A DNA stretch of 64,000 nucleotides from Promethearchaeia archaeon (GCA_029856045.1 JAHQWG010000012.1:96001-160000); one strand, 5' to 3'; shown: positions 29,800-44,140, numbered from the stretch's first letter. Notes: generated by a model not told the origin, from the sequence alone. Made by a program: numbers and translations.

Positions 29800-31218
29800 T
29801 TAATCAGAACCATTTTTTTCTTCATTTTGATTTTGCTCTGTATCATTTTGAATATTTTCTTTTTTTTTTGTTTCTTCAGAACTTACTGAAATCAGTTTTG
29901 AACCACAAACAGGACACTCAGACCAACCATTACGGCATCCGTAGGAACATTGCGGGCAAGGAATAATATCCTTAGTATCCTTCCATTCAGGAATATTTAG
30001 GGTTCCTTGACGAGATTTTGCAAGGTTTTCAAGTTCTTCTTCAGACCATTCAGGTAAGTTAACTCCTAAATCAGTACGAGATTTTGCTATATCTAATAAT
30101 TGCTCTTCAGTCCATAGTTCCATGTTTGGTGGAAGTCCAGTTCCAAGCCCACGCTCAGCTGCATCTTTTACAAGGTCTTCTCGAGTCCAAACCTCTAATC
30201 TCTGTCCGCCGGGTCCAATAGCCTGTCCTGCTTGAGTTGGAGGTGTTGGACCAGTACTCACTTCTGAAGGTTTTTTTGTAGAAGGTGCTTCATAACATAG
30301 TGCAGAGAAGCGTAATAATGCTTCAAAACAAGTAGCAAATGCGTTGACCGATTTACTTTCATCTTGAACAACAACAATCGTTGATCCATCTTGCATACTT
30401 GGCACTGCTATAGCGCAAATTGACACAGGAGAACTGGTTCTTTTTGACTCTGTTGCTGAGGAGAGTTTTTCCATTGCATCTATTAATTCTTTATCCTTTA
30501 GTAGAAAATCACAAATTGGTTCTCCATGCCTTTGATACTGTTCATGATAGCGAGTTAAATTATTCTTGGTTGTATCTTTATCCATTGAGGAAATTAGTTC
30601 AGTTATATATGAATAATTCTCGATCATTGATCCTTTATGTTCTGATTTTTCAGGATTAAAGTCGCCTAAATCAAGATCTCCTATCAAGGGTGCAAATAAC
30701 GGGTCCGCATCTTTTATTTTTCCAAATAAGGTAATCCGTGGAATAATACATTTAATTTCTGCATAATATGAAATTGAATTATCATTAATTGAAATTTTTT
30801 CTGGTTTTTCATTATCAACCATAATTCTTGGAATTGTCCGAAAATACACTTCAACAAAAGGTAATTGCTTAACAGGGATAATCGCTCCGCAACCCATTGG
30901 AATCAATAATTGAAAATTTTTAACATAAGAATTTATTAATTTTTCAAGATCATTTTTCACTTCATTATATTCTTCCTTTTCTAATTCTTTCTTAATATTA
31001 TCTTTTAATTTTTCCAACTTTTCTTCATTCTTCTCAATATTGCCCCCAAATACCTTCACTTCGTCTATTGTATTTTCCTTAAGAATAGAAATAGCATTAT
31101 CAATGATCTTTTGCTGTTCTTTGTTTAGTTCATTAAAAACTAAATAATTATTAACATCAAAATCACTACTTTTAATTAAAACTCTTAATTTTTGAAATAA
31201 TTCTGAAATAATTCTCAA
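29800..31218 (-). CDS. Hypothetical protein with C-terminal W[ST]xExL repeats and zinc ribbon
   Basis: EVWTREDL, ELWTEEQL, PEWSEEEL, PEWKD, then CPQC..CPVC. Confidence 0.8.
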   Translation of the reverse strand: MRIISELFQKLRVLIKSSDFDVNNYLVFNELNKEQQKIIDNAISILKENTIDEVKVFGGNIEKNEEKLEKLKDNIKKELEKEEYNEVKNDLEKLINSYVKNFQLLIPMGCGAIIPVKQLPFVEVYFRTIPRIMVDNEKPEKISINDNSISYYAEIKCIIPRITLFGKIKDADPLFAPLIGDLDLGDFNPEKSEHKGSMIENYSYITELISSMDKDTTKNNLTRYHEQYQRHGEPICDFLLKDKELIDAMEKLSSATESKRTSSPVSICAIAVPSMQDGSTIVVVQDESKSVNAFATCFEALLRFSALCYEAPSTKKPSEVSTGPTPPTQAGQAIGPGGQRLEVWTREDLVKDAAERGLGTGLPPNMELWTEEQLLDIAKSRTDLGVNLPEWSEEELENLAKSRQGTLNIPEWKDTKDIIPCPQCSYGCRNGWSECPVCGSKLISVSSEETKKKENIQNDTEQNQNEEKNGSD

Positions 31219-31931
31219 CTCAAAGAATTAATTATAAAATAATAGTTTCTTTACTGCTATAAGGACTCTACTGCTATAAAAATTTAACTCTAAAAATAGA
31301 ATAAAAATAAAATCAAAATCAGAGTTATATAAATTGCTAGCTATTTTTTGAAAAAGTAAGAGTGTTTAAGAGCACAAAATACATTAATAACTTTCAAAAA
31401 TATAGTTCATAATTGAATACTCATGTATATCATATTTTTATATATTAACTATTGTTAATTAATACACTAATATTTCTCAAAACACTCTTTTTCCTTAAAA
31501 AAAAATTTTAATTACGAAAATCTTTAATCTAATCCAAAAAAACAAAATTTACACCATTGAGATTAAAAATTTATAGAAATTGAATAATGATTATGAAATC
31601 TTATATCAATAGTTAAAAAAATATTAAACATTTTTCACCAACAATTAAAATATTTTTAAAATAATTTTCAATAGTAATTAATAAAAATTGAAAAAATTAT
31701 AATTAAAAATTCTGAAGAAAAATGGAATTAGACTAAAAAAAGAGATTTTTTTAAATTATATCTTTTTGATAATTTATTATTGCATTAATTATTTAAATAC
31801 ATTTTACAAAAAAGGCTGTATCCTTTATAAAATAACACTTCAGAGGAAAATTTTAAATACTAGAATATCATAATAGATCATTATATCAGATAAAATAAAA
31901 TGTGTTGAAATTCAAGGAGCTTAACCTTACT

Positions 31932-32012
31932 ATGAAAATTGTTACAGTAAATATACCAGAACCATATATAAACGCCATTGATAAATTAACAGGACATGAG
32001 GGTGGTGATTAG
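31932..32012 (+). CDS. 26-aa uORF: truncated copy of the downstream RHH N-terminus
   Basis: MKIVTVNIPEPYINAIDKLTGHEGGD*; GGAG upstream of ATG; TTTTAAATA TATA-like box at about 31851. Confidence 0.55.
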   Translation: MKIVTVNIPEPYINAIDKLTGHEGGD

Positions 32013-32086
32013 AAATTAAAATAGTCACAGTAAATATACCAGAACCGTATATAAACGCCATTGATAAATTAACAGGGCATGAAGGT
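31932..32086 (+). repeat. Direct repeat of 72 bp, period 83 bp
   Basis: 31932-32003 vs 32015-32086, 66/72 identical, all 6 differences at third codon positions. Confidence 0.95.
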
Positions 32087-32293
32087 TTATATCCATCAAG
32101 GTCCGAACTTATCCGGGTCGCTGTACGGGATTTTTTGCTTAAGGAACTCAGAATGGCAAGCAATCTTTCTCTTTATCAAAAAAGAACGCCTGAAGAAAAA
32201 TTTGATCATGAAAATTTTGTTAGAGTTCCAGCTACCGATGTTGACTATGGGGGAGATAGAAATTTTAAAACCTTTAGGATTGTGAGAAAATAA
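32015..32293 (+). CDS. CopG/Arc/MetJ ribbon-helix-helix regulator, 92 aa, ATT start (absent from the ORF track)
   Basis: (I/M)KIVTVNIPEPYINAIDKLTGHEGLYPSRSELIRVAVRDFL...; GGTGA 6 nt before ATT; in-frame TGA at 32006. Confidence 0.85.
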   Translation: MKIVTVNIPEPYINAIDKLTGHEGLYPSRSELIRVAVRDFLLKELRMASNLSLYQKRTPEEKFDHENFVRVPATDVDYGGDRNFKTFRIVRK

Positions 32294-32446
32294 AATAATT
32301 AGTTTTAAACTTCATAAATATAAGATAAATAGAACAATATCCTGATTATCTTCCACCCTTTCTTTTTTTTTATAAAGAAAAAATTTAAAAATTTATAAGT
32401 TTTGCATAAAAGCTTTAAGTAAATTGAAAAATTTTTGCTTTAGAAA

Positions 32447-33316
32447 ATGTTAATAGTTGTATATTTTGATAAAATTATTGGACCTAAAGCAATCGCTAGT
32501 AAGCCCGAAGATTTGATTAAAAACTTAAAAAAAGAGACCTTAAATCAAATTGTTTCTCTCTTAGATACTGGTGATGAAGGTTTTTTCACCCATGATTTTT
32601 CTTCTGAACTTCGAACAGCAAATTGGATTTTTCGGGTACCATCTAGTTGGGCACGGGGAAGCATTGAACTAATTATGTTATCGGTAATTATTCAAAAAGA
32701 AATTGAAATTAAAGAATATCAATTAGAAATGAAAAAATTTATTGATCAAATCATAAAAATAGATGATTTATATAAAGCGTTTTACATACACAATCCGAGT
32801 TTAATGCATAAAACAGAGATTCAAAAAAAATTTAAAACTCTAAATGGTAAATTAGACAAATTATATAAAATCCTGTCGCTTAAGAGTGTGGAAACTGCAG
32901 GAAGGTTAATTAAATTAGAAGATTTTCAAAAAAACAAAATCATTTCTGTTCCAAAAATGATGTTAATAAATTTAAAAAAATTAATTAAAAATAAAAAAAA
33001 TTTATTTATTGTGCATAGAATACGGGGCGATTCTCTAAAAATTGATGTAATTCCAGTTACTTCGAAAGAAATAAATAAGTTGGAAATTATTTTTGGTGTT
33101 GATATGACGCCAGCTATTATAAAAAGAATAAGTGATATCTTTTCAAAATATGAAATTTCATTAGTTTTTACGTCGGGAATCTGTCAAGAGGCAGAAAAAT
33201 GTATTTATGAAGTCTATGTTGAGCTTTTAAATATAAATGATCTTGAGGATTTAAAAAATGAAATCTATGAAATCGAAGGAATTATCGATATTCAGACTGA
33301 AAAATTATCCACTTAG
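32447..33316 (+). CDS. Longin/uDENN-like N-terminal domain fused to a C-terminal ACT-like domain
   Basis: LIVVYFDKIIGP...ANWIFRVPSSWARGSIELIMLSV; C-term PAIIKRISDIFSKYEISLVFTSG...LEDLKNEIYEIEGIIDI (beta-alpha-beta-beta-alpha-beta). Confidence 0.7.
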   Translation: MLIVVYFDKIIGPKAIASKPEDLIKNLKKETLNQIVSLLDTGDEGFFTHDFSSELRTANWIFRVPSSWARGSIELIMLSVIIQKEIEIKEYQLEMKKFIDQIIKIDDLYKAFYIHNPSLMHKTEIQKKFKTLNGKLDKLYKILSLKSVETAGRLIKLEDFQKNKIISVPKMMLINLKKLIKNKKNLFIVHRIRGDSLKIDVIPVTSKEINKLEIIFGVDMTPAIIKRISDIFSKYEISLVFTSGICQEAEKCIYEVYVELLNINDLEDLKNEIYEIEGIIDIQTEKLST

Positions 33317-43948: not shown

Positions 43949-44140
43949 ATTCAACTCTCTTCTGTTTGCTTACCTGAAAAATATTTAGAAATATTGGAAG
44001 TTTTTGTCACTGAAGGTCGATTTCCAAATAGATCAGAAGCTATTCGTGTGGCAATTCGAGATTTAATTAAAAAAGAATATTTATTAGAAGAAATATATAA
44101 AAAATCCCAGCTCCAATACCAGAATAGCCAGAAAAATTAA
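43949..44140 (+). CDS. CdrS-like ribbon-helix-helix regulator, 63 aa, ATT (or ATA 43946) start (absent from the ORF track)
   Basis: (I/M)QLSSVCLPEKYLEILEVFVTEGRFPNRSEAIRVAIRDLI; AGGTGA 6 nt before ATT; in-frame TGA at 43940. Confidence 0.8.
   Translation: MQLSSVCLPEKYLEILEVFVTEGRFPNRSEAIRVAIRDLIKKEYLLEEIYKKSQLQYQNSQKN

Follow-up and report, generated by a model that had tools for sequence, protein, structure and literature searches.

Initiation at AUU or AUA behind a strong Shine-Dalgarno (SD) sequence is known from the Escherichia coli genes infC and pcnB. In genes of this type, a near-cognate isoleucine codon occupies the aligned start position behind a strong SD at optimal spacing, an in-frame stop stands just upstream, and orthologues carry ATG at the same place. 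The same features recur in the locus described here, the gene of a predicted ribbon-helix-helix (RHH) regulator in a Promethearchaeia archaeon; unlike in infC and pcnB, its AUU sits 2 nt behind a remnant open reading frame (ORF) that appears to stem from the gene's own former 5' end. We know of no autoregulatory logic for the RHH gene of the kind that IF3 exerts on infC.

The arrangement also recalls ORF pairs coupled by termination-reinitiation, which are co-directional, lie in different frames, are separated by a very short gap and have the second SD inside the end of the first ORF. In Haloferax and E. coli, termination-reinitiation works only where the ORFs overlap or lie very close together (PMC6728339, PMC10666635). 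The usual overlap in such pairs is 4 or 1 nt, and both members code for genuine proteins, which in many cases belong to the same complex. The present ORFs are instead separated by +2 nt, and a 26-codon remnant is followed by a gene that begins with AUU. A further likeness is found within the RHH family itself, in short-RHH/long-RHH operons of related Asgard genomes (contigs L040 and L077) in which an RHH-type ORF lies immediately 5', its last codons hold the SD and the following gene has a non-AUG start (ATA or TTG). There, however, a complete paralogue of 55-66 aa with only about 50% identity takes the upstream position, which is occupied here by a 24-codon copy of the same gene plus two additional codons.

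Natural transformation of Acinetobacter and pneumococcus is known to produce scars by homology-facilitated illegitimate recombination. Like the proposed scar at this locus, they have one homologous and one non-homologous end, retain foreign sequence and leave the recipient partly duplicated. The likeness is incomplete in that the middle of the putatively imported copy resembles the resident one more closely than would be expected. Finally, eukaryotic microProteins, such as plant LITTLE ZIPPER, offer a parallel in which a short protein, encoded close to a larger regulator, corresponds to that regulator's interaction part; in contrast to them, the candidate peptide at this locus bears no sign of purifying selection and lacks half of the dimer core.

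Architecture of the locus

The window, that is the whole stretch of 64,000 nt that was analysed (GCA_029856045.1 JAHQWG010000012.1:96001-160000), is part of a 3.34-Mb metagenome-assembled genome (MAG) of 55 contigs with 29.4% G+C. The allele that it carries, with an 83-nt insertion and a duplicated gene start, is termed D below, and the single-copy form S. Its features are as follows.

31862..31931, plus strand: ancestral sequence 5' of the RHH gene (promoter-proximal DNA and 5' UTR), almost unchanged in single-copy congeners and still discernible in outgroups with as little as 79% protein identity
31932..32012, plus strand: leader ORF (stub of the original 5' end); ATG, RHH codons 1-24, then Gly-Asp-TAG; 26 codons
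32004..32014, plus strand: 11-nt filler; SD GGTGA(T) at 32004-32009, leader stop at 32010-32012, 2-nt gap, then ATT
32005..32028, plus strand: possible weak 7-bp hairpin; the SD (32005-32011) pairs with RHH codons 3-5 (32022-32028), with ATT in the loop
32015..32293, plus strand: RHH regulator gene, full length, 92 codons, ATT start; Pfam RHH_1; 95-96% identity to the ATG-start orthologues of congeners
32015..32086, plus strand: repeat copy 2, RHH codons 1-24, from the direct-repeat comparison
32087..32128, plus strand: diverged synonymous block immediately 3' of the repeat; 12/42 differences from single-copy congeners
32360..32371, plus strand: T-run 3' of the RHH gene, likely archaeal terminator, read from sequence

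The structure that an earlier note had read from this DNA stands in every detail. Codons 1-24 of the RHH gene are duplicated 83 bp upstream as a 72-nt direct repeat (31932-32003 and 32015-32086; 66/72 identical; start-to-start spacing 83). Copy 1 opens at ATG and ends, after Gly-Gly-Asp, with a TAG whose last base is 32012; in the window, its 26 codons reproduce RHH residues 1-24 exactly, comprising the extended N-terminal strand segment, helix A and the start of the loop. Copy 2 begins the 92-aa gene in a different frame, which opens only at 32009, after a TGA at 32006-32008, and which contains no canonical start before the RHH domain, the earliest ATG, GTG or TTG being a TTG at 32135 (codon 41). 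The two ORFs are co-directional; the leader stop ends 2 nt 5' of the ATT at 32015, and the SD GGTGA (32004-32008) lies inside leader codons 25-26, 6 nt 5' of that ATT. The leader has an AAGGAG of its own at 31914-31919, 12 nt 5' of its ATG, and GGAG at a spacing of 12-13 is employed by ATG genes of the same genome. All six differences between the copies, at repeat positions 3, 9, 12, 33, 63 and 69, fall on third codon positions, five of them being synonymous and the other ATG/ATT. They are concentrated at the ends (three in the first 12 nt, one in the middle 48 nt, two in the last 12 nt), and perfect agreement between the copies extends over 29 nt at most, with no shared 31-mer.

Several side observations concern the surroundings of the two ORFs. 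The junction carries a 7-nt near-tandem, ATTAGAA/ATTAAAA (32008-32021), which is perfect in the D contig L038; removal of one unit would bring a GTG (32006) into frame with the RHH gene. An element of 25 nt occurs, with 76% identity, just 5' of the leader ATG (31890-31914) and again at the RHH stop codon (32290-32314), and might be a promoter or operator element or else AT-rich chance. The 713 nt 5' of the RHH gene (31219-31931) are free of ORFs of at least 36 aa on both strands, which is unusually long for this genome, and a search of 31150-31931 for the remnant of an upstream short RHH gene returned none besides copy 1. Oligo-T tracts act as archaeal terminators, and apart from its leader the RHH gene is probably monocistronic.

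The MAG origin of the genome, in 55 contigs, makes it conceivable that two strain alleles were fused during assembly, a concern that the earlier note had itself raised. Four runs, each from a different study, were examined as Logan contigs (one of marine sediment 2016, two of salt marsh 2019 and one of sediment 2019): 31600-32600 is spanned through both copies with 0-1 differences and no deletion joint, which refutes misassembly. No RNA run was among the sequencing runs listed for the locus. Since no exact run longer than 29 nt is common to both copies, the k=31 graph is unambiguous at this point. The same structure is furthermore present in at least seven JGI contigs or samples. In one run (X5) a linked SNP at 32114, also found in JGI contig L070, marks a haplotype that crosses both copies within one contig. 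In the contigs L038 and L093, 15-16 of the 422 nt compared are different from those of the window, yet junction, ATT and leader frame are all preserved; because the same architecture recurs in these diverged haplotypes, chance is excluded. Among the six D haplotypes, the RHH ORF, the leader frame and the leader ATG are intact in all. An artefact of independent assemblies that all produced one and the same junction is scarcely credible.

Gene calls nevertheless miss the gene: those of JGI split the locus into a 36-aa ORF and a 46- or 56-aa ORF, and the 46-aa fragment is present on nine contigs with the 36-aa ORF upstream. An exact look-up of the 26-aa and 36-aa leader peptides and of the 52-aa TTG fragment found them absent from the protein collection.

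The RHH protein and its family

By its sequence profile and modelled fold, the product is an RHH regulator of the CopG/Arc/MetJ type with predicted DNA binding. Pfam RHH_1 (PF01402) scores 27 bits against a cut-off of 20.5, with residues 4-41 aligned to profile positions 2-37 of 39. In the AF2 monomer model (mean pLDDT 72), residues 1-9 are extended, the ribbon itself forming only in a dimer, and are followed by helix A (10-19), helix B (29-54) and a C-terminal beta-hairpin with strands at 68-72 and 84-88. This bears out the earlier statement that the leader peptide would comprise the strand and helix A only. The family, of about 96 residues, is represented by 601 proteins returned by phmmer, with source names among the best 120 that range over Lokiarchaeota, Thorarchaeota, Odinarchaeota and Hermodarchaeota, and is present in 40 of 41 related genomes. 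Residues K2-N7 are invariant across the family alignment. A C-terminal segment, FVRVP ... FKTFRIV (residues 68-88; 32216-32278), is likewise conserved; it coincides with the predicted beta-hairpin and is absent from CdrS, aCcr1 and RHH proteins of CopG size.

The cell-cycle regulators CdrS of haloarchaea and aCcr1 of Sulfolobales are, like the present protein, small archaeal RHH proteins, and they are its best NCBIfam matches. Their scores, however, are far below the cut-offs (CdrS, NF058555, 30.8 against 100; aCcr1, NF053762, 21.2 against 60), and the present protein has an extra tail of about 45 residues with the predicted beta-hairpin. The cdrS-ftsZ2 operon links CdrS to cell-division genes, whereas here a longin-like gene and a Ras-family GTPase take the place of ftsZ as neighbours. 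Downstream of the RHH gene lie a 289-aa protein without a Pfam family and the Ras-family GTPase, and relatives have the same neighbours. A sequence search of the PDB gave insignificant matches.

ATT as a start codon

The codon aligned to residue 1 was compared across 84 distinct 5' ends of the family. ATG holds this position in 57 of them, ATT in 14 and TTG in 10, and GTG, ATA and ATC each occur once. D alleles account for four of the 14 ATT starts; a strong SD, with no canonical start between the upstream stop and the ATT, characterises at least seven of the remainder. Two of the non-D cases are orthologues from two species of another genus, in which the nearby differences are synonymous only. 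The window itself holds a second, divergent RHH paralogue (43949-44140, 63 codons), whose start follows the pattern GGTGA-N6-ATT (element from 43938), with an in-frame TGA two codons upstream of the ATT. At this position ATT is present in four genomes (G000, G001, G002 and G004) and ATG in a fifth (G003); the best NCBIfam match of the paralogue is CdrS, at 41.5 bits and below the cut-off.

The same start type extends beyond the family. In a genome-wide survey of long open frames without a canonical start, codons close to the beginning of the frame were counted: ATA, ATT and ATC together make up 42% of those located 5-8 nt behind GGTGA (26/62), compared with a background of 12.8%; in controls with other motifs or with distant GGTGA, their share is mostly 8-20%, the SD-like GAGTG reaching 36%. 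These codons are also enriched behind AGGTG, and the GGTGA-led count (26/62) about equals that of ATG starts with GGTGA. For an ATT-start SDR and an ATA-start EtfA (L124:61-855 and L127:61-1074 are among the examples), the next canonical start would cut off the first conserved residues of the Pfam domain. The spacing optimum of GGTGA for ATG genes of this genome is 6-7 nt, and that of the RHH ATT is 6. Judged by these alignments and counts, ATT is a native start type in both the RHH family and the genome. According to a 2026 review, SDs are rare in Lokiarchaea, with which the minority of SD-led genes observed here fits well (PMC12993045). A literature search for AUU initiation in any Asgard archaeon found no experimental demonstration.

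Derived state and origin of the duplicated allele

A single ATG-start copy stands behind the upstream sequence of copy 1 in the congeneric genomes G001, G002 and G004 and in the metagenome contigs L037 and L067, and the outgroups L128-L131 and L039 (89-79% protein identity) have the same upstream region, an ATG and a single copy. Relative to all of these single-copy relatives, five close and five more distant, the window carries an 83-nt insertion, and on this comparison the D allele is the derived state. The block immediately 3' of the repeat (32087-32128) is equally distinctive: it differs from S congeners at 12/42 positions, all synonymous, and at only 1/42 between two D lineages, while the remainder of the gene differs by about 5%. 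The changes fall in eight codons and switch codon families (Ser TCC/AGT, Leu TTA/CTT). Because the outgroup L128/L129 has the S version of the block (3/42 differences), the D version is the derived one; L130 has AGG TCC as in D, yet shows 9/42 differences. That twelve changes fall in only eight codons and are all synonymous argues for a functional homologue as the source and against a mutational burst. The filler together with the ATT, in turn, resembles the native 5' ends of family homologues, in which GGTG- or GAGGTG-type SDs precede ATG, ATT, ATA or TTG by 5-8 nt. A simple 83-nt tandem duplication is excluded, since the filler is unrelated to either flank, matching the 11 nt 5' of copy 1 at 1/11 and the 11 nt 3' of copy 2 at 2/11 positions. 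The search for a donor, across 154 genomes of the order, gave a best match outside the genus of 80% over 108 nt.

The model that best accounts for these data is one in which the D allele is, with fair probability, a lineage-specific, fixed recombination scar on a working RHH gene, the regulator still being made from AUU and the leader most likely being a by-product. The ancestral gene had a single ATG start. In the ancestor of the D clade, a diverged homologue would have supplied a second complete 5' end by recombination, with a homology-based right-hand crossover near 32129 and an illegitimate left-hand join after codon 24. The import would reach from 32004 to about 32128 and comprise a strong SD, a spacer, the ATT start, the N-terminal codons and about 14 more codons, and what is left of the old 5' end would be the leader ORF of 26 codons, with its stop 2 nt short of the new start. 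Ribosomes would then initiate at AUU guided by GGTGA 6 nt upstream, as on many other genes of the same genome, and reinitiation by ribosomes that terminate on the leader may contribute to RHH synthesis. That the structure is real and derived, that the RHH domain is under selection and that ATT is a native start type is shown by the data, from which we infer the recombination mechanism, AUU initiation on the D mRNA and any coupling to the leader.

Several observations speak against this model, among them a donor search that found at most 80% identity outside the genus and the excess of non-synonymous changes in the RHH tail described below. Moreover, a single difference separates the two copies in their middle 48 nt, whereas the adjoining block differs at 12/42. 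Such near-identity needs an extra step, either gene conversion between the copies or a mosaic donor; alternatively, the allele would have arisen by local duplication followed by a separate short conversion. Patches that are as diverged as the block also occur in the neighbouring 289-aa gene. The 3' half of that gene (32861-33316) is about 19% different from congeners and from L038, and its 5' half about 6%; this mosaic suggests frequent recombination with diverged lineages in the region. The D allele has been found in two lineages that are 6-7% apart in flanking DNA. The flanking genes of L038 differ by 2.1% and 1.9% from the S contig L067 and by 6.4% and 6.8% from the window, while its block differs at 1/42 positions from the window and at 13/42 from L067. 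A D block shared by L038 and the window despite L038 flanks that are nearer to L067 means that the allele is either old or was moved by recombination, and that it was not purged.

This history also bears on the third-position pattern, which the earlier note had valued at about (1/3)^6 under random placement and had taken as evidence that both copies are selected as peptide. The arithmetic is right, but the step to selection on both copies fails: third-position-only differences are expected because two formerly separate functional genes would show them. Copy 2 runs into the derived block with its 12/42 synonymous differences, and the stub has two amino-acid changes (G21R and H22Y) against one synonymous change.

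Selection on the regulator and the fate of the stub

Synonymous and non-synonymous changes, counted across the six D-clade haplotypes, separate the two ORFs. RHH codons 1-47 have 6 synonymous and 0 non-synonymous changes, where about 23% synonymous would be expected under random mutation (P about 1.6e-4), and the tail (codons 48-92) has 1 synonymous and 7 non-synonymous changes, at positions that also vary among intact orthologues. The leader stub, albeit in a small sample, has 1 synonymous and 2 non-synonymous changes, G21R and H22Y, together with a stop that is either TAG or TAA, TAG being the commoner and probably the older of the two; within stub residues 1-20, the D clade shows one synonymous change only. 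Part of the D-clade differences could come from recombination with single-copy lineages. The counts support selection for the RHH protein and not for the leader peptide, the conservation proposed for the latter in the earlier note being unsupported by its ratio of 1 to 2 beside the 6 to 0 of RHH codons 1-47. The regulator is probably still functional and made from AUU, possibly aided by ribosomes that terminate 2 nt upstream, and the leader peptide is most likely a by-product.

Were the 92-codon frame instead a young pseudogene that has not yet decayed, its start codon having been taken by the insertion, then the lack of any ATG, GTG or TTG before codon 41, the mere fragments that gene callers report and the 7 non-synonymous changes against 1 synonymous in the tail would all find an explanation. 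Codons 1-47 argue otherwise with their 6 synonymous and 0 non-synonymous changes, as do the normality of ATT and ATA starts in the family and genome, the optimal SD spacing, the persistence of the allele in many samples and in two lineages 6-7% apart, and the variability of the changed tail positions among intact orthologues; a dead gene is accordingly rather unlikely. The proposal that the 26-aa peptide, strand plus helix A, was selected as a dominant-negative microProtein that pairs with the RHH protein and blocks its dimer draws on the identity of the peptide to RHH residues 1-24 in the window and on the single synonymous change within residues 1-20 in the D clade, where three changes in all are too few to exclude constraint. 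It does not sit well with the stub's 2 non-synonymous changes against 1 synonymous, since G21R alters a glycine that all 30 members of the family alignment share and H22Y is a change too, nor with the absence of helix B, half of the RHH core; the third-position pattern, moreover, is explained by the origin of the copies. Such a microProtein is highly improbable. A DNA switch, in which some members of the population would lose 83 nt by recombination between the 72-nt copies and so come to express an ATG-start gene, is suggested by direct repeats that are 92% identical and whose deletion would restore an in-frame ATG gene for the same protein. Yet the contigs of the four runs, which are blind to rare variants, contain no deletion joint, and the copies share at most 29 nt of perfect identity. 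An ATG-start protein with the D-allele sequence was sought among 5.8 billion proteins and none was found (best match 93%), and none with the D tail or block occurs among 30 metagenome loci. The switch that the earlier note had envisaged is thereby rendered highly improbable.

Possible coupling between leader and regulator

The gap of 2 nt between the leader stop and the ATT is compatible with termination-reinitiation, and coupling is possible because reinitiation tolerates very short gaps. A coupled second position would, furthermore, be familiar to the family: in the relatives L077 (1290-1800) and L040 (480-1100), a complete short RHH gene (55-66 aa) has its end natively overlapped by the orthologous long one, which in L077 starts at ATA within the overlap ATAA and in L040 at a TTG within the last codons of the upstream gene. 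AUU initiation does not in general depend on such a leader: other ATT-start members, such as the second genes of L029 and L031 and the paralogue at 43949, lack an ORF that ends at the start. The proposed reinitiation on a weak-start regulator is plausible in part: only ATT is available behind a well-placed SD, at a 2-nt gap, but ATT is a regular start in the family and genome, not a decayed or special one peculiar to this gene.

A stronger form of this idea makes the leader a selected regulatory element, on whose 26 codons RHH output depends through obligatory reinitiation at a weak AUU or through unmasking of the SD. The 2-nt gap with the SD within the last leader codons suits it, as do the requirement of archaeal termination-reinitiation for overlaps or very short gaps (PMC6728339, PMC10666635), the stop that stays a stop (TAG or TAA), the frame and ATG intact in 6/6 haplotypes, the native overlap of long and short RHH genes in L040 and L077, and an SD that the 7-bp hairpin could mask, if only as a possibility. 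Against this, the second genes of L029 and L031 and the 43949 paralogue start at ATT without a leader ORF; a back-up stop four codons on would serve if the stop were lost, so that its conservation says little; the leader ATG must stay because the promoter region is shared; and the hairpin does no better than shuffles. A selected leader is on balance unlikely. It is distinctly less probable that the scar was co-opted in such a way that translation of the stub sets RHH output by AUU reinitiation while the stub peptide enters non-productive pairs with the regulator; if true, this would amount to prokaryotic microProtein and uORF control that arose from a recombination accident and was kept in two lineages for that reason.

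Other devices were considered for the same stretch and rejected. The RNA at 31915-32060 folds no better than its shuffles (z +0.84), and a structured RNA was dismissed. A programmed frameshift from the leader into the RHH frame is unlikely, as the TGA at 32006-32008 confines the shift to the last two leader codons, which hold no slippery sequence. An 83-nt bulge-helix-bulge intron, scanned for as a 4-bp central helix with an outer helix of at least 3 bp, was not found at a spacing of 83, and elsewhere such motifs occurred at chance level (18 among about 16,800 tested).

Implications

A recombination scar on an AUU-start gene that probably still works, the reading preferred here, makes the locus a well-documented evolutionary scar and a variant of known phenomena. 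Specifically, the population data indicate that a recombination accident can replace a translation start and leave behind a leader ORF derived from the gene itself. Third-position-only differences between repeats can, furthermore, reflect separate histories, so that a reading in which both copies are selected is not required. The family provides a clean example of AUU and AUA starts in Asgard archaea, in which one aligned start is ATG, ATT, ATA or TTG depending on the lineage. Gene finders limited to ATG, GTG and TTG truncate or miss genes with ATA, ATT or ATC starts, and standard ones miss the AUU here, splitting a conserved regulator into fragments of 36 and 46 aa. If the leader does modulate RHH output, the natural alleles, a single ATG copy on the one hand and a stub with AUU on the other, would offer a ready comparison for studies of translational control in Asgard archaea.
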